Shown piece by piece: positions 1,450 to 24,732 of a stretch of 64,000 nt of DNA. The DNA comes from a virus, in IMG/VR virus record IMGVR_UViG_3300045988_123629; one strand, 5' to 3'. Position numbers and translations under genes: made by a program. The notes under the pieces were generated by a model that searched no databases, was not told the origin of the DNA, and worked only from the letters and a program-made list of their open reading frames with translations. How positions within the stretch are numbered: the stretch's first letter is position 1; every line of letters starts with the position of its first letter.

Positions 1450-4035
1450 TTAAGCCTTTCCACCGTTAAGGATAAGTTCATCACCAGCAGTTTGAACTAA
1501 TTTATTAACATTTATATTATTAACAGTAGCTACACCAGTGTCAGAAACACTAATAGCATTTTCAGCATCAGAGCTGACAATTAAACCTGCGCGAGCTGCG
1601 GTAGCAAGAGGAATATTAACAGTCTTTTCGCTAATTGCGATTTCAGTACCATTAACTTGAATCTTTTCAATTACATTAGGCTGTGCAGCATCCCACTGGG
1701 CGATTTTCTCAGAAGTAATTCCTGCATAATCAGCTTTCTTTAATTCAGCGATTGCATCAGCATTAGCTTTTTCAGCAGTTTCAGCGCGAGTGGTCTCAGC
1801 AGCGATTGCATCAGCATTAGCTTTTTCAGCTGCTTTAGCACGAGTAGCTTCATCACTAATAGCAGTGGCATTGGTACCTTCAGCAGTTTTAGCACGAGTA
1901 GCTTCATCTTCGACTGCTTTCTTATTAGCCGCGATATCTTTAACCATTTGGTCTGCAGCAGAACCATGTGTGGTGATATAAGTTTGAATTTCCTTTAAAG
2001 TATCAACTGCGGCGTCGCCGACTTCTGCGGCTGCAAGGAAGGCATCAACACGAGATTTAACACCAGCAATAGCAGTAGCATTTGCTTGTTCTTTACCTTC
2101 TGCACGTGTTTGTTCAGCAGCAACGGCATCTTTAACAGTCTTAGCTACAGAGCCTTCAACAGTATCAATACCATTTAATTTAGCAATAGCATCTGTATTG
2201 GTCTTAATACTTGCTTTAACAACACTATCATCATAAGTAGCAGCCTTTTGAGCATCAGCAATCATCTGAACGATTGTCTTGTCTGCTGGAATGGTGCCAA
2301 CCTTATCACTTAATGTATTAACAGCAGTCTGAGCATCAGTGCCAGCCTTCTTTGCATCAGCAACAGCAGTATCAACCTCAGTCTTAACAGCATAGCCCTT
2401 AGCTTCGACTTGAGCCATAGTAGTCTTGGAAGTAGCAAGTTCATAAGCTTCTTTTACAGTACCAGTATGCCCTTCGCCAAGGATAGCGGTCTTAGCAGTA
2501 GCAACTTTAGTATCAGCATTAGTGCCAGCAGTTGTAATAGCTTCAGACTTAGCTGTAGCAATTGCACCACTTACACTATTAACATCAACTTTACCTTCAA
2601 GAGCAGCGACTTTCTTACCAATAGCAGAAGTATCACCAACTAAGCTGTCAGCATAAGCTTTAGCTGTTTTACCAACTTCATCCGCATAAATCTTTGCACC
2701 ATGGATAGTTTCACTATCTTTAGTGTCAACATCAGTCTGGCCATCTTCACCGCCAAGAGTATGACGTAAATTATCAACTGCGGTATTAACCGTGCTTACT
2801 GTAGCAGCTTTATTAGTACCAGCATTATATTCGCCATCAAAAGTTAAATTATTTTGTTTGCCATCAAGAGCATCCTGAAGACCATCAATTTTAGAAATAC
2901 CAAGAGTAGGAATATCGGAAACAGCAAGATTTTCGCCTTTAGTTACAAGACCTTTGGCATCATAAGTAATCTTTGTGGCAGTACCAGCAGTAATATCTTT
3001 GTTAGCAACAACAGCAGCATTAGCCGTCTTTTTCACAGCAGCAATAGCAGTTGTATTATCACTATCAGCCTTTTCAAGGGCTTTCATCTTAGTATCGTAA
3101 GCAGATTGATCAACAAAATTACCAGCATCTTGCTTTGCGTTCCACTTTTCAATATCTTCAGCAGTAATACCAGCGGCAGGAAGTTTTTCAACTACACTAA
3201 CACGTCCGGCAAGAGTAGTTAAATCAGCAGCCTTAGCATAATCCTCAATCTTAAGAGCCTTAATGGCGCCATCAATATAAGCCTTTACTTCAGGAGATTG
3301 ACCTTCAGCAGTGCCAAATCCTTTAAGAATAGCTTTTAATTTATTAATATCACCAGTTAAACCATTAACAATATCGGGATGGCTCGCGACCCAATCAACT
3401 AATTCTTTAAAGGTGTCAATAGTACCATTTTCAGTAGCTTTGGTAGCAAAATCGTTAATAGCATCATTAACAGCTTTAGTAACTGAACCTTCACCCGTAC
3501 CATTCAAAACACCAATAGCATCTTCATTAGTTTTAATACGTTTACGAAGACCAGCAGTATCATCAGCACCAACAACAGCTTCAAGGGCATCTACATCAGT
3601 CTATGCTGCAGCAGCTTTATCATCGGCAGTCTTAGCATCGGCAACGCCTTTATCTGCTTGCTTCTGGGCAGCTTCAATTAGAGCATATAAACCAGTAGCA
3701 ACAGTTTCGTCCTGAGTAGCAGAGCCAACTTTCTCAATAAGAGAAGCAACTTGGCCCTGAAGAGTAGAAACATCAGAAGCAAGATCGCCAGAAGCAGTGG
3801 TAGAAGCAAGTTTAACAAGAGTACCAGTCGCATTGCTAATCATATAAGCTTCGCATTTATTATCAGCAACTAAAGTTAAAATCTGACCAACATAGGCGGT
3901 AGCGCCAGATTTTGCATAAGTTTCGAGTTCTGCTTTATTATACCATACCGCAGTAGTATCAACAGGAGCAGGATTACCACGTTTAATAGAAAGTGGGAAA
4001 CCCATATAAGCAGCATCATTCATAATAACAGCCAT
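1450..4035 (-). CDS. Large fibrous structural protein rich in Ala/Thr/Lys, with coiled-coil-like repeats. It is read through one in-frame TAG at 3601-3603.
   Basis: ORFs 3601-4035 and 1450-3507 are in the same frame and separated only by a TAG. There is a GGAGG RBS 9 nt upstream of the ATG at 4035. The sequence has internal repeats (ATRAKTAEGTNATAISDEATRAKAAEKANADAIA...). The stop is TAA. Confidence 0.5.
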
Positions 4036-7329: not shown

Positions 7330-8823
7330 TTAATAATTGTTGTATGCGGTTAATAAAGTATCTAACTATGTTTTAAAACTAGCATCACCTGATGCTACTT
7401 TAATATTATTTCCTAAAGCAGTTGTTATAGCGTTAAACCAAACTACTAAACGTAGGGGATTAGTATCATTTATAGTAGTAATTGAACTGTTTAAATAAGT
7501 ATTTATATATCCTGCGAAAGTATTTGCTTCACTTCTGGAATAATCTTTCCAAGTAAACGCGGGCCACCAAACCGCGTAGTAAGTTATATTAGATGTACCA
7601 GTAGAAATTGAAGGTGTTGCTCCTTTTTTATAAGTTGCAGTTTTTGCCGAAGACGATGTAGACCATCCTTTAAAAATATAATTATTGCGAGTGGGATAAT
7701 TAGATCCATTTATATTGAAAGAAGAATTAGTGTTAACCGTCTATGATCCTGGACCGCCAGAACCGCCATTTGCATTATAAGTTACAGTAATTGTATTTCT
7801 ACGCCAAATGGCATAAAGAGTTTTATACACAGGACTTGTTGATGATACCTATAATTGCGTGCCAATATCAGCTGAAGAAGAACTAGTTCCCCAACCTAAG
7901 AAAGTATAATTTGCTTTTGTTGGAGTGTCTAAAGTAATAGTTCGACTAGAATTAACACTTGAATAGCTTACTTGCTATCCTTCACTATAACTACCAGATC
8001 CTCCGTTATAATGATAGGTTATATAAGTATAGTAATAAATACGCTACCACATAGCATATAATGTATAAGTTGAACCATTATATGCTTGCACAGGACTACT
8101 TACATAAGCTGATGAATTATCTGTTGTCCATCCTAAAAAATTATACCCAGAGAGTGAAGGTGTATCTAAATATATGTCCCAAGGCTGAGTTGTGCTTGAA
8201 AAAGTATATTGCTATCCATTATTATAACTACCAGATCCTCCATTATAATAATATGTTATATAAGCATAGGATAAATTTTGTCTATAAAAGAATATAACAT
8301 AACTACAATCTCCTACTATATAAGTGGAATCTTGACTCCATGTAGTACCATTACTAATATAATAATTTAAACATTCCTATTCTGAATTACCAGGACAATA
8401 TCCTAAATAAGTATAACTACTACCATAAGAAGGAGCAGTCATACCAAAGCTACCTTGCATCCAACCATTTATATAACTTCCAGTTGTGACATCATAGCAA
8501 GCATACAATGGATCGATGGAGCCTGATCCCCCACCTCCTCCACCACCGCCACTTGATCCTGGGGTAGTAAGAGTGCCATCCCAAATTCCTCCTGTATTCC
8601 ATTGGCCTCCAGTATAATACTATAACCAAACAGTATAATCATAAGTAGTTCCTGGGCTCAGCCCAAGGACATGTACCCAAGGTGTACCAGTAGTTGCATC
8701 ACCCCATACAGTATTTCCATTTATAGTTACTGCCATTTGTCTTTGAACATTATCAGAACTAAGATCCGTTGCTTCAAAAATAGCCCCAGTTTCACTAAGA
8801 CTGGATATGGTATAGCTAGCCAT
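7330..8823 (-). CDS. Repeat-containing structural or adhesin-like protein with a Gly/Ser-rich region and three Listeria-Bacteroides-type (flg_new-like) repeats. It has at least 7 in-frame TAG codons.
   Basis: The RBS is AAGGGGG before the ATG at 8821-8823. I translated 8823 down to about 7680 codon by codon and the frame stays open except for TAG at about 7 positions. It has a G(8) stretch and repeats of YxYNGGSGSY..G(TAG)Q...L.TP....Y.F.GW. The first TAA is at 7330-7332. A TAG at 7366 could alternatively be the real end. Confidence 0.55.
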
Positions 8824-9770: not shown

Positions 9771-10004
9771 TTTTTATTTGAGGGTTTTAATTAGGTTAAC
9801 CCACAACCTCCGATAGTGTGTCTACTGGACCAAGGAAATACCCGATCGCCGCATTTCGCTCTTTAAAAGATGGACGCTTCTAATCCTACTTCCTATCGTA
9901 TAAAAGGACTTATCAATGACTTTTATACATATTGCCTTTATTACCTTTATAAACAAATTAGCATTACCCAGTGCTACCGCGAGGAGGTTTTGTTTTTAGC
10001 ACCG

Positions 10005-10093
10005 CAGCCCCGCTGGGATTCGAACCCAGAACGACTCCTTCAAAGGGAAAACGGTTTTAGAGACCGCCGTGTTAACCATTACACTACGGGGCA
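10005..10093 (-). tRNA. Putative amber-suppressor tRNA (anticodon CTA, reads UAG). It has a long, class II-like variable arm of about 21 nt and discriminator G73.
   Basis: Manual fold of UGCCCCG-UA-GUGU-AAUGGUUA-ACAC-G-GCGGU-CUCUAAA-ACCGU-(21-nt arm)-CUGGG-UUCGAAU-CCCAG-CGGGGCU-G. The anticodon loop is CUCUAAA, giving anticodon CUA. Pair 1:72 is U.U. CCA is not encoded. Confidence 0.65.
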
Positions 10094-10222: not shown

Positions 10223-10357
10223 AATTTTTCTCCTTAAATTGAATTTATGGTTCGGAGAGGATTATCTGCGTCATCTAGACCCAATTTTTTCATTCATTAT
10301 ATATTCTTTCAGAGTAGCAAATTCATAATCAAATATATAACTTAGCAGAACTCCGAT

Positions 10358-10555
10358 GGCACGGCCGGCTGGACTCGAACCAGCAGATGCAGGAGTCAGG
10401 GCTCAAAAGTTGGACTTGCACCAACATTCTCGGTTTTATAGGACCGGAAGCCTACTAACAGAACTTATATAATACTACTTAACCCCGTCATATTATATAA
10501 CCCATTTAACTGATTTTGAGAAAGTCCTGTGCCTTACCAATTTGGCGACGACCGT
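10358..10555 (-). tRNA. tRNA-Gln (anticodon TTG) gene interrupted by an insertion of about 125 nt in the anticodon loop. Either an intron-containing tRNA or a disrupted pseudogene.
   Basis: The 5' part (ACGGUCG-UC-GCCAAAUUGGUAAGGC-A-CAGGA-CUUU) and the 3' part (UGAC-UCCUG-CAUCU-GCUGG-UUCGAGU-CCAGC-CGGCCGU-G-CCA) together match the bacterial tRNA-Gln architecture. The acceptor halves are complementary. An insert of about 125 nt lies between anticodon-loop positions about 35 and 36. Confidence 0.5.
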
Positions 10556-10886: not shown

Positions 10887-11295
10887 ATAAGCAACTCAAT
10901 TAATAAAAGTTGCTACAAAATCCTTTTCAAACATATACATAGGAGCAGAAGCAAGACCGCCATCATCAATCTTACAATACAAAATAATATCTTCCGCATT
11001 GGGATTAGAAGCGCGGGCAATTGCTTTTACAAGCTCCTTATTATCAATGGAATTATAATAGCAACCAAAATCAACAGAAGTCTTTTTCATTTTTTATCAA
11101 TTCCTTTCTTAACTTTCTATATATATTATATTATATTTTTTATAAAAAATCAAAAAAGTTATTTCAAACTAGACACGTTAGAAAACATAATTTCAAGTTA
11201 TGTGCGTTAACCAATTTCGCCAAAACCCCAGTTGGAGTTTACAGGATTTGAACCCGTATACCTTTCTAATGAAAGAATTGCTGTATGTGTCTAAA

Positions 11296-11458
11296 TGGTC
11301 CGAGTGGAGCGACTCAAACGCTCGGCCTCCTGAACCCTAGTGGCAACAATGAGATTCGAACTCATAACAGCTATTAACTGACCTCGGGAGCGACCCTCAG
11401 ACATTACCATTCTGTCATCTTGCCAAATCAGGCGTTCTATCAACTGAACTACACCCGG
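11296..11458 (-). tRNA. tRNA-Pro (anticodon TGG) gene interrupted by an insertion of about 90-105 nt in the anticodon loop. The insert itself has a tRNA-like T-arm and acceptor.
   Basis: The 5' part is CCGGGUG-UA-GUUC-AGUUGAUA-GAAC-G-CCUGA-UUU. The 3' part is GGGU-UCAGG-AGGCC-GAGCG-UUUGAGU-CGCUC-CACUCGG-A-CCA. The acceptors pair across 7 bp. The mature loop would be UUUGGGU (anticodon UGG). The insert contains ATGAG-TTCGAAT-CTCAT. Confidence 0.45.
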
Positions 11459-11479
11459 AAATAAACTATATTTTTTATT

Positions 11480-11656
11480 TTAAACTAAATCAATTTCATC
11501 TAAAATAAAATTTTGTTTCTTTTTACAATGAACGCAATACATTGTTTTTCGATGTTTCTTTCCTTTGTAAGAAAATCTTTTAAAATTCTTAGCTTTAGGA
11601 GCGGTCATTTGTAAATGGCAAACAGGACAATGAAAATACCTTAATTGAAATTTCAT
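11480..11656 (-). CDS. Small zinc-ribbon protein (58 aa, CxxC...CxxC).
   Basis: GAGAGG RBS followed by an ATG. Sequence MKFQLRYFHCPVCHLQMTAPKAKNFKRFSYKGKKHRKTMYCVHCKKKQNFILDEIDLV, then TAA. It falls below the 60-aa cutoff of the ORF track. Confidence 0.45.
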   Translation of the reverse strand: MKFQLRYFHCPVCHLQMTAPKAKNFKRFSYKGKKHRKTMYCVHCKKKQNFILDEIDLV

Positions 11657-11905: not shown

Positions 11906-11934
11906 ATAAACAAGACTAAATTATCAATACTATT

Positions 11935-11990
11935 GCTCTACCAATTGAGCTAACTCCCGATGGCCGGGAGCGAAGGACTTGAACCTCCAA
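11935..11990 (-). pseudogene. Permuted tRNA halves. A tRNA 3' half (T-arm, acceptor and CCA) is followed directly by the matching 5' half (acceptor and D-arm). There is no anticodon arm.
   Basis: The minus-sense sequence reads GGAGG-UUCAAGU-CCUUC-GCUCCCG-G-CCA-U-CGGGAGU-UA-GCUC-AAUUGGUA-GAGC. The two acceptor strands are mutually complementary, but their order is 3' half then 5' half. Confidence 0.35.
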
Positions 11991-12083
11991 CACATAGTTC
12001 CTTTTATGATAAAAATTGCTGTTTTAGTCTTTAATTTATATATTTATTATATAATATTTTTTTATAAATGTCAAAAAGTTTTA

Positions 12084-13005: not shown

Positions 13006-13085
13006 TGGTACGGCTACTGGGACTTAAACCCAGATTATGACAGCTTAGAGGGCTGGTGCCATATTCAATTAGGCGATAGCCGTAA
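13006..13085 (-). tRNA. tRNA, probably Arg (anticodon TCT). It has an atypical C at position 33.
   Basis: Acceptor ACGGCUA/UAGCCGU, A73 and CCA. T-arm CUGGG-UUUAAGU-CCCAG. Anticodon arm CCAGC-CCUCUAA-GCUGU. Confidence 0.45.
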
Positions 13086-13279: not shown

Positions 13280-13876
13280 TTATATCTCTTCAGTCTTATT
13301 TTTAAATCTTTGACTATTTAGATACTTATAATTGGGAGTCAAAGAATGACAATTAGGGCACAATAATTCTAAATTATTCAAATCATTGTGAGTTCTATCG
13401 CCATCTTTATGATGAATCTCTAAAGGACATTTCCCAGTTGTTGGATTAATTTCTCCCCAACCACACTTCTAACATTTATTATTATATTTTTTGAAAAGAT
13501 AAGTTCTAATAGAATCAGAAATTTTAGTAGCATTTCCACTTTTCTTTAAACCACTTTCTTCTCCATTAGCAACTTTTTCAATATATTCTTTTCTTTTATA
13601 TTCCTACTAACAAGCATTAGAACAATATTTATACTATCCTTTATGTAATTCTTTACCGCAATTTAAACAATATTTTTCTTTAACTTTTCCTGTAGTATTA
13701 CAAATACATCCGCACGACTTTGTAGCTCCTCTTGTTAAATTGCCAGTTTTTATTTCTTTCTAATTTCCACAATCACATTGGCATAACCAATAAGTACTTC
13801 CATTACGACTTGGTGCTTTTTTAAGAGCAACTAATCTTCCAAATCTTTGACCAGTAATATCTAAAGCATTAGGCAT
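13280..13876 (-). CDS. HNH homing endonuclease with at least 5 in-frame TAG codons.
   Basis: AGGAGTG RBS followed by an ATG at 13874-13876. The stop is TAA at 13280-13282, and I checked that start and stop are in the same frame. Motifs: N-terminal ...YWLCQCDCGN(TAG)KEIKTGNLTRGATKSCGC and HNH core CPLEIHHKDGDRTHNDLNNLELLCPNCH. No ORF of 60 aa or more appears in the track because of the TAGs. Confidence 0.6.
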
Positions 13877-16496: not shown

Positions 16497-16906
16497 ATCC
16501 TACCTCCTCTGCTTTTCTGGACTTGGAACCAGCCTATGGTAGCATTAGATAGGCGACCGCACTTATCGTTCGCTAGGACAAAACTCGCGCTCATCGCCAA
16601 AGATCAAATCATCAACATCTTTAAACATATCAGACAATCCTCCTTCTTTATTTATTTTTATGAAACAAAATAGAGAGTAGAAAAACAATTCATTTCTATG
16701 GAAGTGAGAGAAAACAACAATCTATATATCAAACGAAAGGGGAAATCAAACAGAAAGATAAGTAAGAAAATGAACTAGATGTAAAAGACTCTCTCTATTG
16801 TATAGTCTTTTGTTTCTATATATTTAAATATATAGAAGAGTAGCCTTTCTAACAGGCATCCCAACAGCCTCGAGCAGCAAAGAGGTTCCTCATTTGTTGG
16901 TCTTTT

Positions 16907-21383: not shown

Positions 21384-21463
21384 TGTAAAGGTCTTTCTTT
21401 ATTTTATAAATATATTATATATTATTTTTTTAAAAATGTCAAAAAAATTTTTAATTGGTTATC

Positions 21464-24161
21464 AATTTCCATGTTGTACTATCTGTTTTTACATATACTC
21501 TACTGTCAGGATGAGCCATATAATAAGTTAAATATACTGAACTATTTGCTGTACTATCACGATAAGGCTTAACATATATATAATAAGTAGTTCCAGCCGT
21601 AACTTTATAACAAATACCAAAATTAGCTCCAGTACCGCCATATTTTTTTGCATAATCATCATCGCTAGCTAAAATATTAGAAGAAGGCTATCCACTATCA
21701 TTAAGAGAAGTAATACTTGATGTTAAATAACCATAAGTGTCTATTGAAGAATTAGAATAAACAATAAAGTCCCCTGAAATAGTAGGAGTAAAAGAAAAAT
21801 ATCGACAAGTGCTTGGAGATAAAGTCCAAGAAGAGGTGTTCTATTTGTTATAAGTGGGAGCAGATATTGACACAGTAGAATAAGCCCAATTTGCTATAGA
21901 CTAAATAGTAATTCTTATATAGCCATTTCCACCATGACCTGTTTCAGATGACCCTGTTGGAGAAATAAATGAAGAATTACCTGCGATAGTTGATGCAGAA
22001 GTTAAATAATAGTTACTATTTAACAAACAACCAGAAGGATAATTAGAAGCAGTGGATGAGGTATATACATAACCAGAACCTCCGCCACCATGATATTTTG
22101 TTCCACCCTGCATATTAGAGAGTGAAACAATTCCACCATACCAGCCGCCTCCTCCAGCTCCATTTATATTATAAGAAGAACTGGATGAATATCCATTTCC
22201 TCCTACTCCAAAGCTATTTCCTGAAGTTTGTGTACTTAGACCTGGACTATTAGACCCTGCTACACTACTGGTGCCCCCACCGGCATCTCCGCTTTCTGTA
22301 TTAGATCCCCAAGAGGTAGCTCCGCCTCCGCCGGCGACAATTACACGAGCGTAGAGAGAGTTTGATCCAATACGAATATCAGAAGCTCCTCCACCACCAC
22401 CGCTTCGAGACATAGATCCGGAGACTCCTCCAGTACCGCCTCCATTAAATCCTCCTGTATAATCATTAGCAGAAGAAGAAATACAACCTCCTTTTCCACC
22501 AGTATATAAATATACCGTTTGAGAGGAAGAAAGAGTTAAAATTCCCGTTGAATATCCACCTTTTCCTCCTATAGCTCCCGAAGAAGCGTCAAAACTAGAG
22601 TTACTATTAGCACCATTTCCTCCCTAAGCCCCCCAACATTCTAATTTATAAGTACCTTTTGGAAGGGCAATATTTTTATAAGTTCCACTATAAGGACAAT
22701 TTAATATATCTCCTGTTTTTAAAGAAGAAGAAGAAGGAATTGAAGAAGTTAAGTCGTAAGTTGCCATGTAACGTCTCCTCCTTTCCAAGTTGTACTATCT
22801 GTTTTTATATATATAGCTTTAGTAGGAGCATAAGTATTAGAATTGATTTTTATATTTAAAGGAGATAATACTGTAATACGAATATATCCATTTTGCCCTC
22901 CAGGATTAGTTTTACTATAGCCTATCGTAGTAGAGGCATTTGTTAAATAATAATTATTGTTTAACAAACAGCCAGAAGGATAATTAGAAGCAGTTGATGA
23001 AGTATATACGTAGCCAGAGCCTCCCCCATTATAAGTTCTATAATCAGCAGAGCTATCACTAACATTAGTAGAAGCACCACCGCCATACCAGCCACCACCA
23101 CCACCACCGGGACCATAATTATAATTGGTAGATCCACTAGCATCAGCACCTTGACCAAAAGATCCATTTGTTCCTGCTTTAGTCTATGTAGCCTTATATT
23201 CTTCAACCGCAGAGTTACCCGTCAATCCGCCACCCTATTTAATAGAAGAATTACTTTCTCCCGCGCCACCACCACCACCACCGGCAACAATTACACGGGC
23301 ATAAAGAGAGTCTTGACCTACGCGGATATCGGAAGCTCCTCCGCCTCCTCCACCTGATGTGTAAGCAGAAGTATACCATCTAATCCTAGAGCTACCTCCT
23401 CCATTAAATCCACCATTAACTATCTTACCTTTTTCACTATCACTTGAATAACTACCATGCCCCCCGGTGTATAAATAAATAGTGGTAGGAACTGGTAAAG
23501 AAAGAATTCCTATAGAATATCCTCCTGTTCCACCCCAATAACTATTTTTTGAACTCGCAGGAGTATAAGTAGTATTACTTTCCTATTTCTAAATCTAAAA
23601 ATAAACTTCTTCATTATCCACGGAATTTGAGCTATCTTTAGTATAAGTCATTACGATAGTAGATCCTGATGATAAAGAATAAGTGCCAGTAGTAGTAAGA
23701 GAACTTGATCCAGAAACCGCATTTAAAACTGTATTTCCTCCAACAGTTAAAGTGACTTTATCATAGCTTGCTTCAGTTTTATAATAATATGAAAATTTAT
23801 AAGTCCCCCCAGAAGTACAAGTTAATGTAGTTGTAGCAGTACTTGAATCTATTCCTCCGTTAGTAGCTATCCAGTCATTTCCGTCTTGACGAAAATAATA
23901 ATTTGAATCATTAACAGTAAAATAACTGGTCGCATTATGAGTTCCTATATATATCCATGAAGTTGTTGTTGATGAAGTTAAAGAACCAGAATAACCAATT
24001 CCGCCATAGCCACCCCAACATTCTAATTGATAATTTCCCGCTGGAAGTTTTACTGGATTTACCGCTCCTGAATAGCTACTATTAATAATATCTCCTGGAA
24101 TAAATTTAATAGAAGAATAATCTGTTATAGAAGTTCCAGAAGGATTATAAGTATTTGGCAT
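21464..24161 (-). CDS. Large Gly/Ser/Thr-rich tail fibre or adhesin-like protein with many in-frame TAG codons. It may comprise one very large gene or two genes.
   Basis: GAGGAGG RBS before the ATG at 24159-24161. ORFs 23595-24161, 22749-22967 and 21901-22413 and the stretches between them are coding in register and interrupted only by TAG. For example, VYF(TAG)I(TAG)K(TAG)ESNTTY at 23583-23597 was verified by triplets. Repeats GGGGGA.DIR.G..SLYARVIVAGGGG are present. The end coordinate is approximate. Confidence 0.4.
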
Positions 24162-24177
24162 TTAAATTCCTCCTCTA

Positions 24178-24732
24178 TTAAGTGAAATACTAAATCCAAA
24201 TATCTCCAACATTTCCGTCTGAAGCGGTGGGAGCAGAAGTGGATACTTTAATATTTCTTAAAATATTATTGTTTAAATAAGAAGAATTAGTAGTGACAGA
24301 TAAATTAGATCCCATAGAACCATTAGTAATCTAAGCTAAGTCTAATCCTGGATTAATGGGTAAAATATAATCACCACTGGATGACCCTAATTGTATCTAT
24401 CCGATAAATGCTTCATCTTTATATAGAAAATTTGCTTCTACAGCAGTATTCTAATGCCAACATCCTAATCCATTATTAGAATGTTCTTTTTTAATATAAT
24501 ATTGAGTTAATTTTAATGCTCCTAAATTATTTATATTTATTGTTATATTAGTAATTGGATTTGTCGCAACATTATTCATATTTGGAATAAGGCCAATAAT
24601 CATTCCGTCTTTATATTCTTTAATAGATTTTGCGGTTCCTATGTAAGTTAATCCATCAGTAGAAGTAATTGGAATAATTTCTAAACTACCACTTCCACTA
24701 CGCATATGTTCTATTGCTTTTGGAATTGCCAT
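24178..24732 (-). CDS. Structural, probably tail-associated, protein with about 5 in-frame TAG codons.
   Basis: AAGGAGG RBS before the ATG at 24730-24732. TAG at 24451 and others downstream. The in-frame TAA is at 24178-24180. The next gene's RBS and ATG follow directly. Confidence 0.45.

Follow-up and report, generated by a model that had tools for sequence, protein, structure and literature searches.

A complete tRNA-shaped insert in the anticodon loop of a gut phage tRNA-Pro(UGG) gene

Introduction

"Enigmatic" introns of 79-114 nt located in the anticodon loop of tRNA genes were described in Lak megaphages (Devoto et al. 2019, Nat Microbiol; PMC6784885, Table S6). These introns contain a 7-bp acceptor-like helix, a UGG D loop and a UUCGAAU-type T arm, and one of them (Thr) is called a tRNA by Rfam (PMC6784885). 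Inserted at site 36/37, they begin with a 26-31 nt 5′ leader made of a UACAG/UACAA-type hairpin and an A-rich linker, end 1-3 nt past the acceptor stem, and are polymorphic for presence or absence between genomes while being identical where present (PMC6784885). Our literature search retrieved neither a mechanistic follow-up of the Lak introns nor a report of permuted tRNAs in phages. Among other interrupted tRNA genes, bacterial group I introns occur in cyanobacterial tRNA-Leu(UAA), in tRNA-fMet and in Patescibacteria (PMC13011429), and protein-spliced introns as well as split and permuted tRNA genes are known from archaea and eukaryotes, for instance Nanoarchaeum and Cyanidioschyzon merolae (reviewed in PMC4090602 and PMC3400036).

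Here, we describe an interrupted tRNA-Pro(UGG) gene found in a 64,000-nt stretch of viral DNA, referred to below as the window. The phage comes from the gut, has a genome of about 190 kb with TAG recoding, and encodes an AAA ATPase that is closest to those of cultured Herelleviridae.

Results

Anatomy of the interrupted gene

ARAGORN in intron mode reported c[11296,11458] as a tRNA-Pro(tgg) gene with an 87-nt intron in its anticodon loop. An interruption at this place had been proposed in the original prediction and is also supported by uninterrupted orthologues (see below); the length then given to the insert, 90-105 nt, was too high. The gene is organized as follows:

11296..11458, minus strand: interrupted tRNA-Pro(UGG) gene, 163 nt, encoded CCA included (ARAGORN intron mode)
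11425..11458, minus strand: 5′ exon, 34 nt (sequence reading, orthologue alignment)
11338..11424, minus strand: tRNA-shaped insert (intron), 87 nt (absent from orthologues; Rfam tRNA; ARAGORN -ps90)
11296..11337, minus strand: 3′ exon, 42 nt (sequence reading, orthologue alignment)

The 5′ exon comprises the acceptor strand CCGGGUG, the D arm GUUC-AGUUGAUA-GAAC, the anticodon stem 5′ strand CCUGA and the loop bases U32 U33 U34. The 3′ exon starts with G35 G36 G37 U38 and continues with the anticodon stem strand UCAGG, the variable loop AGGCC, the T arm GAGCG-UUUGAGU-CGCUC and the acceptor strand CACUCGG, followed by A and CCA. Both halves had been read in this way (CCGGGUG..CCUGA-UUU, now placed at 11458..11425, and GGGU-UCAGG..CACUCGG-A-CCA, at 11337..11296), as had the pairing of the outer acceptor stem over 7 bp and the loop UUUGGGU of the spliced tRNA; all of this stands, one of the 7 bp being a G.U. 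Without its insert the tRNA-Pro is 76 nt long. Both junctions carry the repeated GG, which makes the boundary of the insert ambiguous by 2 nt, so that 34/35, 35/36 and 36/37 are all possible sites and the 5′ exon could end up to 2 nt further 3′. ARAGORN detected no second tRNA-Pro in the array, the interrupted gene being the only one.

The insert is tRNA-shaped

The insert corresponds to the equivalents of tRNA positions 1-76, from GGCAAGA to UGUUGCC-A-CUA, and contains the following parts in 5′ to 3′ order:

11418..11424, minus strand: inner acceptor 5′ strand GGCAAGA, predicted RNase P site (sequence, ARAGORN -ps90)
11401..11415, minus strand: inner D arm ACA-GAAUGGUAA-UGU, with the GG of the tRNA elbow (Rfam search, ARAGORN -ps90)
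11383..11399, minus strand: inner non-canonical anticodon arm UGAGG-GUCGCUC-CCGAG (ARAGORN -ps90, comparison with a free-standing gene, L152)
11366..11382, minus strand: inner long variable arm G-UCAG-UUAAUAG-CUG-UU, class II type (ARAGORN -ps90)
11349..11365, minus strand: inner T arm AUGAG-UUCGAAU-CUCAU with a canonical T loop (Rfam search, ARAGORN -ps90)
11338..11348, minus strand: inner acceptor 3′ strand UGUUGCC, discriminator A and 3-nt tail CUA (sequence reading)

The Rfam tRNA model scored 35.1 bits over 11341-11424 (gathering score 29), and ARAGORN, which detects the inner tRNA only at -ps90 and not at default thresholds, drew a full cloverleaf called tRNA(cgc). The acceptor-like ends and the tRNA-like T arm noted in the original prediction were recovered, the acceptor stem having six of seven standard pairs plus one G.G, with a U at −1 and ACUA after its 3′ strand. 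The same prediction saw no foldable anticodon arm, but one exists: its stem pairs are U.G, G.A, A.G, G-C and G-C (tandem G.A/A.G), and its loop GUCGCUC has U37 and a possible G32-C38 pair. Compared to a canonical elongator tRNA, the insert possesses the acceptor stem, the GG of the D arm, the T arm and a score above the Rfam threshold, and lacks a 5-bp Watson-Crick anticodon stem, a purine at position 37 and detection at default settings. It has no G3.U70 (Ala identity), and its discriminator is A. The anatomy of an RNase P/RNase Z substrate is present, with a 12-bp coaxial acceptor/T-arm helix and an elbow; a single-stranded 5′ leader and 3′ tail flank the inner tRNA shape, and the 3′ splice site directly follows the CUA tail. 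Minimum-free-energy folds were uninformative (z-scores of −0.7 for the whole gene and −1.0 for the insert). A phage tRNA-Pro(UGG) gene that is otherwise intact carries in its anticodon loop an RNA with the full shape of a tRNA.

Bacterial group I tRNA introns and bulge-helix-bulge introns classically reside in the anticodon loop, which raises the question of whether the insert is a self-splicing group I or II intron or an intron of the archaeal/eukaryal type. We find this exceedingly improbable. At 87 nt the insert is far smaller than any group I or II catalytic core and folds as a tRNA, and no Rfam intron or ribozyme model matched positions 11100-11560, even at E ≤ 10. The intron of the tRNA-Gln gene described below ends with U, not with the terminal G of group I introns, though two of the three possible registers of the Pro insert do end in G. 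As to the archaeal/eukaryal type, the anticodon stem and the inner acceptor helix are separated by 3 nt on the 5′ strand and 8 nt on the 3′ strand rather than by two 3-nt bulges around a 4-bp helix, and the minimum-free-energy fold contains no such motif. The two checks suggested with the original prediction, intron covariance models and a search for bulge-helix-bulge motifs at the ends of the insert, therefore yielded no match and no motif that can be drawn.

Interrupted and uninterrupted alleles coexist among relatives

In nine related phage contigs (L001-L009) the orthologue is uninterrupted, and the spliced tRNA-Pro can be aligned to these genes in each of its 76 columns. With the spliced sequence of the window included, 95.8% of this alignment is paired, and both sides changed in 14 of the 21 pairs. 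The spliced 22-mer CGCCTGATTTGGGTTCAGGAGG is contiguous in 74 IMG/VR contigs carrying ordinary tRNA-Pro genes, and the anticodon arm of the spliced tRNA is identical to that of the uninterrupted tRNA-Pro in these 74 other viral contigs. Judging from these comparisons, precise removal of the insert would restore a normal tRNA-Pro. The string GATAGAACGCCTGATTTGGGTTCAGGAGGCCGAGCG, which combines the D and T arms specific to the window across a contiguous UUUGGGU, was not seen among DNA alleles.

The insert is absent from L001-L009 and L398, and present and identical in L399-L407; every examined relative that lacks it has an intact tRNA-Pro at the same position. The interrupted allele is identical at 163 of 163 positions in nine ENA contigs from nine samples (independent metagenome assemblies), in which the 6 kb around it match the window at 96-100% identity. 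In one of them, the 195-kb contig ERZ27229771:k119_258827, the 6.2-kb segment that was read is 100% identical to the window. Samples containing the phage include ERZ27229771, ERZ28572855 and ERZ1767611. Since divergence across the local 1 kb does not exceed about 1%, the perfect conservation of the allele is weak evidence of constraint, and because all nine intron-bearing alleles are identical, the lineage holds no covariation evidence for the inner fold. The insert is a discrete unit, present in some close relatives and absent in others, the pattern expected if it is acquired or lost whole, and the interrupted tRNA-Pro is neither a chance occurrence nor an assembly error.

These data also bear on whether the insert could be an assembly chimera or DNA junk such as a MITE-like insertion that ends in inverted repeats and has duplicated 2 bp (GG) of its target. 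Its ends GGCAAGA and UGUUGCC do form an imperfect inverted repeat, and GG does occur at both junctions. Nevertheless, the recovery of an identical sequence in nine independent assemblies speaks against a chimera, the "inverted repeat" serves as acceptor stem in a full cloverleaf whose D and T loops are canonical, and no paralogue or other copy of the element turned up when the insert was compared by BLAST to the window and to about 1.2 Mb of related phage loci. We consider an artefact or junk DNA highly improbable.

An insert of the same architecture in tRNA-Gln(UUG)

The original prediction drew a parallel with a tRNA-Gln gene, in which the same architecture is indeed found:

10357..10555, minus strand: tRNA-Gln(UUG) with a 123-nt tRNA-like intron (intron 10398-10520) (ARAGORN intron mode, relatives)

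This intron lies between positions 35 and 36, the junction being fixed by the divergent copy in L005, and reads CUCAAAA ... GUUGG-UGCAAGU-CCAAC-UUUUGAG-C-CCU. It is kept in nine genomes. The L005 copy carries compensatory changes in the acceptor, anticodon and T stems of the exons, which argues that the interrupted Gln gene is not decayed and that such genes stay functional. The explanation by decayed tRNA genes that had been offered as the simpler one is hence contradicted for Gln.

Local alignment of the Pro and Gln inserts gave a score of 16, compared to 14.4 ± 2.3 for shuffled sequences, showing no significant similarity between them. The two inserts share a geometry nonetheless: each can start at acceptor +1 (with U at −1), which for Pro is one of three possible registers, and can end 4 nt after the acceptor 3′ strand, with tails A-CUA in Pro, C-CCU in Gln and C-CCA in the L005 Gln copy. 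The T-arm 17-mer of the Gln insert is common to free-standing phage tRNAs with a UGCAAGU T loop. The anticodon arm of the Pro insert matches in 16 of 17 nt that of a free-standing tRNA-like gene of another viral contig (L152, 3708-3780; 43.6 bits against the Rfam tRNA model), the sole mismatch being the first base, U in the insert and C in L152. An identical 17-mer, offset by one base, is common to both, and the remaining bodies differ, yet still pair. Because Gln shares its T arm and Pro its anticodon arm with different free-standing tRNAs, the two inserts look like independent derivatives of different phage tRNAs. Hence, of the mobile or intron-like family suggested initially, the intron-like and tRNA-like character and the presence/absence pattern hold, and a single sequence family does not; likewise, the inserts do lie in anticodon loops, and active targeting of these loops by a mobile element is not supported.

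The 15-mer of the inner anticodon arm has 55 matches in IMG/VR, all but one of which (L152) are chance matches in GC-rich DNA, and for the 17-mer in metagenomes and genomes, the matches listed (at least 120) comprise only chance matches and a duplicate of L152. Near and distant searches of INPHARED with the array and with the insert returned only generic T-arm matches, the inner T arm plus acceptor has no exact match in IMG/VR, and a gapped IMG/VR scan disclosed no other insert at the same Pro site. ARAGORN in intron mode on 157 loci mostly returned artefacts bridging adjacent tRNAs; the only credible extra interrupted tRNA is an Arg(CCU) gene in a 361-kb contig (L017), which contains an example of a Lak-type intron.

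The match to a free-standing gene also fits a reading without splicing, in which the insertion killed the tRNA-Pro, the inner 87-nt RNA is the selected product and the outer halves are discarded, only the inner RNA being freed by RNase P and 3′ processing. Besides the 16 of 17 matching nucleotides of its anticodon arm, the complete tRNA fold of the inner RNA is compatible with such a nested gene; the insertion-bearing lineage is young and all its copies are identical, so a dead outer gene need not show decay. One could even speculate that a circularly permuted tRNA nearby (11912-12032), which has C1-G72, supplies Pro decoding. Three observations make us hold this reading to be rather unlikely. 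The interrupted gene is the sole ARAGORN tRNA-Pro of the array, and the insert-free relatives examined all keep an intact one; the outer exons are flawless, with the anticodon arm of a working tRNA-Pro in 74 contigs; and the parallel Gln exons evolve compensatorily with their intron present.

Permuted tRNA genes and ribozyme candidates in the array

Two circularly permuted tRNA genes are found near the Pro locus (11170-11293 and 11912-12032) and are kept in relatives. Of the two, at least the unit interrupted in its anticodon loop would require end joining, which implies a need for loop joining in this phage. Brute-force un-permutation with ARAGORN was too permissive to fix the anticodon of the permuted tRNA. 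The junctions of the introns and of a permuted tRNA are alike: in each, a helix abuts the anticodon stem, the 5′ side having 2-4 nt and the 3′ side 7-8 nt. Rfam models also gave an HDV-like match (26 bits, 9949-10003) directly 3′ of a suppressor tRNA and a twister-like match (39 bits, 16501-16551) in the array. The unusual tRNA units are flanked by a recurring AAGAC-N4-ACAGCAA signal; ACAGCAA is absent from the Pro insert.

Discussion

We put forward, tentatively but as quite possible, that the insert is excised by RNase P and a 3′-end tRNA nuclease, after which an RNA ligase seals the loop. The primary transcript would fold, and host tRNA end-processing enzymes would recognise the inner tRNA-shaped module. 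RNase P would cut 5′ of inner +1, after U34 of the outer loop, leaving the 5′ exon with a 3′-OH, and a 3′-end tRNA endonuclease would cut after the 4-nt tail A-CUA, leaving the 3′ exon with a 5′-phosphate; an enzyme of the RNase Z type cutting after position 76 is a candidate. With the outer acceptor, D, T and anticodon stems holding both exon halves together, a 3′-OH/5′-phosphate RNA ligase would seal the nick to give tRNA-Pro(UGG) and a free 87-nt tRNA-like RNA. We infer splicing, the cleavage sites and the end chemistry. Cutting exactly after a non-CCA 4-nt tail is no standard RNase Z activity, and tRNA-Pro would end up with a 10-nt loop if the cut fell after the discriminator. The freed RNA may itself be functional; its unusual anticodon arm is conserved in a free-standing gene that belongs to another phage.

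A DRB0094-family RNA ligase is reportedly 140-fold enriched, and a CCA-adding enzyme 250-fold, in gut phages that carry tRNA-linked theta ribozymes (PMC10879173). This ligase enrichment, together with the HDV-like match 3′ of the suppressor tRNA, makes a ligase plausible for the phage studied here. Neither the ORFs of the window nor the 10 kb past its low-coordinate end yielded a gene for an RNA ligase, for RtcB or for RNase P or RNase Z. The search for ligase, RtcB and PNKP, which covered window ORFs, TAG-read-through ORFs, this 10-kb flank and a 965-nt contig at the other edge, yielded only a weak HAD_PNKP match, a metallophosphoesterase, HNH and GIY-YIG.

Alternatively, the insert could be a genuine intron removed by a dedicated pathway instead of RNase P and RNase Z, in which a phage endonuclease or a small ribozyme would leave 2′,3′-cyclic phosphate and 5′-OH ends for an RtcB-type ligase. 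The permuted tRNA genes nearby would be matured by this machinery as well, and the tRNA shape of the intron would reflect its origin or a separate function. Such a pathway could draw on the twister-like and HDV-like candidates, and is consistent with the similar junctions of introns and a permuted tRNA and with the signal recurring beside odd tRNA units. It would also accommodate Lak-type introns, whose 5′ splice site RNase P alone cannot set because a 26-31 nt leader precedes the tRNA-like part. We see it as distinctly unlikely given that no Rfam ribozyme or intron family was detected at the locus, that the Pro insert lacks ACAGCAA, and that no candidate endonuclease or RtcB was found in the window.

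To our knowledge, bacterial-type tRNA genes are regarded as uninterrupted, self-splicing group I introns excepted. Excision by tRNA end-processing enzymes followed by ligation would fit a broader proposal, which we hold to be possible if somewhat doubtful, namely that gut phages use a protein-dependent tRNA splicing with a tRNA-shaped cassette intron that is undescribed in the bacterial world. If true, a tRNA gene dropped into the loop of another tRNA would be an "instant intron", the recurrence of unrelated tRNA-like inserts in Lak megaphages and in this lineage would be explained, and the same ligation capacity would let circularly permuted tRNA genes exist in phage genomes. The Pro locus is a cleaner natural experiment, having a leaderless, tRNA-sized and tRNA-shaped intron, intron-less orthologues, "empty-site" anticodon arms, an allele unchanged in many samples, and a second unrelated insert in tRNA-Gln with the same geometry and exon covariation. 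Together, these advantages turn the removal of phage tRNA introns into a directly testable question. Confirmation would add a new maturation route for tRNAs in bacteria and phages, show a simple way in which introns can evolve and possibly point to control or counter-defence acting on the tRNA supply of phages.

Each step of the proposed pathway has a functional analogue. In mitochondrial tRNA punctuation and in the mascRNA of MALAT1, a tRNA-shaped module that is part of a longer transcript guides RNase P and RNase Z to its own ends, and phage T4 uses Pnkp and Rnl1 to reseal an anticodon loop broken by the PrrC nuclease; neither system combines both steps into intron removal. Group I introns share with the Pro insert a site in the anticodon loop of a bacterial-type tRNA and a sporadic presence. 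They are self-splicing, at least 200 nt long, and have a conserved core, a U at −1 pairing with the guide and a terminal G, whereas the Pro insert has 87 nt, no Intron_gpI match at E ≤ 10 and no P3-P8 core. Archaeal and eukaryal systems rely on protein endonucleases and an RNA ligase, their introns can encode other RNAs, and permuted tRNA genes co-occur in the window as they do there. However, those systems use a bulge-helix-bulge cut by EndA/Sen and joined by RtcB or Trl1, a motif that the locus lacks, and we know of no EndA in bacteria.

The tRNA-like introns of Lak megaphages are the closest precedent. The hosts of the two kinds of insert differ, the Lak phages being 540-kb Prevotella megaphages and the window phage having about 190 kb and a Herelleviridae-like AAA ATPase. 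The Pro and Gln inserts have no 5′ leader and begin directly with the acceptor stem, and the insert of the window has no similarity to Lak genomes beyond a generic T arm. Like the Lak introns, however, the Pro insert sits in the anticodon loop of a phage tRNA from which its removal would restore a canonical tRNA, its acceptor helix and T arm end a few nucleotides from the 3′ splice site, and it is polymorphic among relatives and identical where present.

Structure of the interrupted tRNA-Pro(UGG) gene

Using ARAGORN in intron mode, a tRNA-Pro(tgg) gene with an 87-nt intron was detected at c[11296,11458], which divides the locus into three segments.

11458-11425, minus strand: tRNA-Pro 5′ exon
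11424-11338, minus strand: insert
11337-11296, minus strand: tRNA-Pro 3′ exon

Read on the minus strand from 11458 to 11296, the 5′ exon is CCGGGUG-U-A-GUUC-AGUUGAUA-GAAC-G-CCUGA-UUU, the insert runs from GGCAAGA to UGUUGCC-A-CUA, and the 3′ exon is GGGU-UCAGG-AGGCC-GAGCG-UUUGAGU-CGCUC-CACUCGG-A-CCA. Both junctions carry GG, which leaves three possible cut sites, following position 34, 35 or 36. The original prediction of an interrupted tRNA-Pro was largely correct in its reading of the sequence and the feature is real; its estimate of 90-105 nt for the insert slightly exceeded the 87 nt measured here.

The segment 11424..11341 scores 35.1 bits against the Rfam tRNA model (gathering score of 29), and ARAGORN draws a full cloverleaf for the insert at a slightly relaxed threshold.

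Elements of the insert cloverleaf
Acceptor: GGCAAGA/UGUUGCC, with one G.G
D arm: ACA-GAAUGGUAA-UGU
Anticodon arm: UGAGG-GUCGCUC-CCGAG, with pairs U.G, G.A, A.G, G-C and G-C
Long variable arm: UCAG-UUAAUAG-CUG
T arm: AUGAG-UUCGAAU-CUCAU
Discriminator: A

The insert had been thought to contain no foldable anticodon arm, which is contradicted by this cloverleaf; the sheared G.A tandem in its stem explains why the arm was missed. A 15-mer of the insert's anticodon arm has 55 matches in IMG/VR, only one of which is in a tRNA context, a free-standing 73-nt tRNA-like gene (L152, positions 3708-3780 of the 49-kb viral contig IMGVR_UViG_3300025936_000270; Rfam tRNA, 43.6 bits). The two sequences have in common the identical 17-mer GAGGGUCGCUCCCGAGG, and their anticodon arms match at 16 of 17 positions (CGAGG-GUCGCUC-CCGAG in L152), position 27 being U in the insert and C in L152, both of which pair with G43. 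The acceptor, D and T stems differ between the two, with pairing kept in both. A common arm combined with differing paired stems relates the insert to tRNA-like RNAs of phages that are marked by an unusual anticodon arm, and this type of arm, with tandem G.A in its stem, may define a class of such RNAs. No further copy of the insert was found in the window or in approximately 1.2 Mb of related loci, and a comparison with INPHARED returned generic T-arm matches only.

We also compared region 11100-11560 with all Rfam families (E≤10) and obtained only tRNA matches and noise at the level of snoRNA models. No intron covariance model, and hence no group I or group II intron, matches the locus at this threshold, nor does any self-cleaving ribozyme, and 87 nt is too short for a self-splicing core. 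A bulge-helix-bulge motif, which the original prediction had named as something to check at the insert ends, cannot be drawn by direct reading: the outer anticodon stem and the inner acceptor helix are separated by 3 nt (5′ strand) and 8 nt (3′ strand).

Uninterrupted orthologues and distribution of the interrupted allele

With the AAA ATPase gene as a handle, 24 related loci were recovered from IMG/VR. The nine closest (L001-L009, 88-99% amino acid identity) carry an orthologous tRNA-Pro(UGG) at the same place, uninterrupted, with which the spliced tRNA-Pro of the window aligns over all 76 columns. Mapped on the cloverleaf, 95.8% of the cells of this alignment are paired and 14 of 21 pairs have changed on both sides, a pairing not approached by any shuffle or slid register. 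The anticodon stems vary and all pair (CUUCA/UGAAG, CUUGA/UCAAG, CUGCA/UGCAG, CGUGU/ACACG, and CCUGA/UCAGG in the window). In the allele alignment that also includes the distant relative L010, no part of this tRNA varies more among close relatives than the anticodon stem, with five different compensated stems, and the loop is fixed. Read directly from the alignment, D loop AGUUGAUA occurs with T loop UUUGAGU, and D loop AGUUGGAA with UUCAAGU, a covariation that appears consistent with a tertiary change from G19-C56 to A19-U56. Moreover, 74 IMG/VR contigs contain the exact spliced 22-mer CGCCTGATTTGGGTTCAGGAGG without a break in their DNA, in each case within an ordinary tRNA-Pro(UGG) gene whose body is different, which indicates that exact removal of the 87 nt remakes a naturally used anticodon arm.

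ENA contigs were retrieved by means of the exact 64-residue protein encoded just downstream of tRNA-Pro. The interrupted gene is present at 163/163 identity in nine of ten contigs, each from a different sample, and the tenth (L398) bears an intron-less allele. The surrounding 6 kb are 96-100% identical to the window, and the nearby homing-endonuclease gene differs between contigs. Local divergence around tRNA-Pro is at most ~1%, the closest differences being at 11518 and 11285/11281, and perfect conservation of the interrupted gene is therefore weak evidence of constraint. The window allele is a mosaic, with a body like that of L007 and an anticodon arm like that of L006/L009. This mosaicism and two endonuclease genes located inside the tRNA array make it plausible that the insert could spread via recombination or gene conversion.

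13280-13876, minus strand: HNH endonuclease gene, 5 in-frame TAG codons
17598-18377, minus strand: GIY-YIG endonuclease gene, 4 in-frame TAG codons

Both are homing-endonuclease genes, and relatives carry either one at the same spot.

A second interrupted gene, tRNA-Gln(UUG)

The gene at 10555..10357 (minus strand; mislabelled Glu(ttc) by ARAGORN) is a tRNA-Gln(UUG) whose exons agree with the tRNA-Gln of gut phage Phass-1, a gene without interruption, down to the loop CUUUGAC. Its 123-nt insert, CUCAAAA ... GUUGG-UGCAAGU-CCAAC-UUUUGAG-C-CCU, is kept in eight of nine close IMG/VR relatives (nine genomes with the window). The divergent copy in L005 sets the junction between positions 35 and 36 (CUUU/GAC around the insert). 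Exon changes in the acceptor, anticodon and T stems of L005 are compensatory, with 100% pairing and seven pairs changed on both sides; between L005 and the window the intron is 88% identical and the exons 74%. Compensation in these exons means that an interrupted gene of this kind is selectively maintained, implying that the insert is excised from the RNA. The description of the Pro insert as intron-like and tRNA-like, with recurrence in a second gene, is upheld.

The notion of one homologous family of inserts did not survive, since the two have no sequence similarity. The Gln-insert T-arm 17-mer GTTGGTGCAAGTCCAAC is found exactly in 77 IMG/VR loci (L026-L102), many of which are ordinary free-standing phage tRNAs. 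Judging from their sequences, the Pro and Gln inserts appear to descend independently from different phage tRNAs and to have come to occupy the same position in the structure. Many free-standing tRNAs of L026-L102 combine the T loop UGCAAGU, non-canonical in having G at position 55, with a D loop in which AGUAG replaces GG.

Shared geometry and a proposed route of excision

Both introns can start at +1 of the inner acceptor, with U at −1, and both end four bases past the acceptor 3′ strand.

Discriminator and tail of the inserts
Pro, window: A-CUA
Gln, window: C-CCU
Gln, L005: C-CCA
Gln, L004: C-UCU

These limits make the intron equivalent to tRNA positions 1-76. What the inserts conserve is the acceptor/T-arm stack together with the D-loop/T-loop elbow, the portion of tRNA recognized by RNase P, RNase Z and the CCA-adding enzyme. 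We infer that RNase P would cut the 5′ junction, that a 3′-end tRNA nuclease would cut the 3′ junction, and that an RNA ligase would then seal the 3′-OH to the 5′-phosphate in the outer anticodon loop, a joining reaction carried out by T4 Rnl1 in tRNA repair. Cleavage after a non-CCA tail would be atypical of RNase Z. Neither the window nor the single 10-kb flank covered yielded an RNA ligase gene. In gut phages with tRNA-linked theta ribozymes, DRB0094-family RNA ligase is 140-fold enriched and CCA-adding enzyme 250-fold (Kienbeck et al., PMC10879173). Experimental follow-up is worthwhile, since the cleavage and ligation predicted here lend themselves to simple tests.

Permuted tRNA genes next to tRNA-Pro

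Two circularly permuted tRNA genes adjoin tRNA-Pro; our literature search found no report of such genes in phages.

11293-11170, minus strand: permuted tRNA-Ser(UGA), directly 3′ of tRNA-Pro
12032-11912, minus strand: second permuted tRNA, broken in the anticodon loop, 3′ half ahead of 5′ half

The Ser unit begins with the T arm (ACGGG-UUCAAAU-CCUGU) and acceptor 3′ strand (AAACUCC-A), followed by linker ACU, the acceptor 5′ strand (GGGGUUU), the D arm and the anticodon arm (CAUAA-CUUGAAA-UUAUG), and is closed by helix UAGACAC/GUGUCUA. In the second unit, the 3′ half reads ACUAU-GUGUU-GGAGG-UUCAAGU-CCUUC-GCUCCCG-G-CCA and the 5′ half that follows it reads CGGGAGU-UA-GCUC-AAUUGGUA-GAGC-A-AUAGU, the ends being bridged by UUAUCA/UGAUAA and AAAGACUAAA/UUUAGUCUU. 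Conservation in relatives is 92-100% for the Ser unit (L001-L009) and 96-98% for the other. The distant L010 keeps the permuted order of the Ser unit, with compensated acceptor pairs, a compensated change in the long-range closing helix and anticodon GGA (also Ser). Being broken in the anticodon loop, at least the 12032-11912 unit would need its ends joined if functional, and the permuted genes are an independent hint of loop joining in this phage. The Ser unit, with its break in the variable region, is possibly a two-piece tRNA that does without ligation.

The motif (A/U)AAGAC-N4-ACAGCAA recurs on the gene strand right after tRNA CCA ends, ahead of odd tRNA units (ACAGCAA starting at 21386, 17538, 13156, 12022 and 11284, minus strand), and is also present in L010, L015, L017 and L053. 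Its AAGAC half pairs with GUCUU further downstream, so the motif is transcribed; it may serve in processing or act as a promoter. Interrupted tRNA genes of more distant phages contain a hairpin plus ACAGCAA, and in viral locus L053 a tRNA is split by three tandem units of ~67 nt each.

The phage and its tRNA array

All genes of the window are on the minus strand, and the tRNA array extends over ~9.3-21.4 kb, with 21 tRNAs including a CUA suppressor according to ARAGORN. In-frame TAG codons in several genes indicate that TAG is recoded; read-through is also needed by genes 7330-8823 and 21451-24732. The nearest cultured relatives of the array AAA ATPase are from Herelleviridae phages of Enterococcus and Bacillus (~42% amino acid identity), and many ENA metagenome assemblies hold near-identical genomes of 186-197 kb. 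Three further elements were observed in the array.

13009-13083, minus strand: tRNA by Rfam (46 bits), not called by ARAGORN, T loop UUUAAGU; given its loop CUCUAAG, it may be a second CUA suppressor
16501-16551, minus strand: twister-like ribozyme between two small ORFs (Rfam twister-P1, 39 bits, local E=6.6e-7, below the gathering score of 67), whose 3′ strand GAGGAGG overlaps the ribosome-binding site of the downstream ORF (start 16495)
9949-10003, minus strand: sub-threshold HDV-like (theta-type) ribozyme candidate, 26 bits

The last begins precisely where the suppressor tRNA(CUA) (10004-10093) ends on its 3′ side, as has been reported for the theta ribozymes of gut phages with recoding.

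Comparison with the tRNA introns of Lak megaphages

The only precedent for tRNA-like phage tRNA introns found in the literature is the Lak megaphage paper, which reports tRNA introns that it calls “enigmatic”, with presence/absence polymorphism and no known mechanism, and says of one that it “itself may encode a tRNA” (PMC6784885); no mechanistic follow-up was found. Located at 36/37, these introns open on the 5′ side with a hairpin leader (UACAG...), continue with an A-rich linker and close with a tRNA-like module that ends 1-3 nt before the 3′ splice site (Table S6 of PMC6784885). We identified a 108-nt intron of this type in a tRNA-Arg(CCU) at 1612-1793 of IMGVR_UViG_3300028833_000001 (L017, 361 kb), in which leader AAUACAGAG... 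is followed by module GAUGCCA...GCUGG-UUCGAGU-CCAGC-UGGCGUC-G, ending exactly at the discriminator. In contrast to the Lak introns, the inserts of the window have no leader, the intron is a tRNA-sized unit and the phage belongs to a different lineage. The Pro insert is a distinct form of a rare kind of intron that is already described but unexplained.
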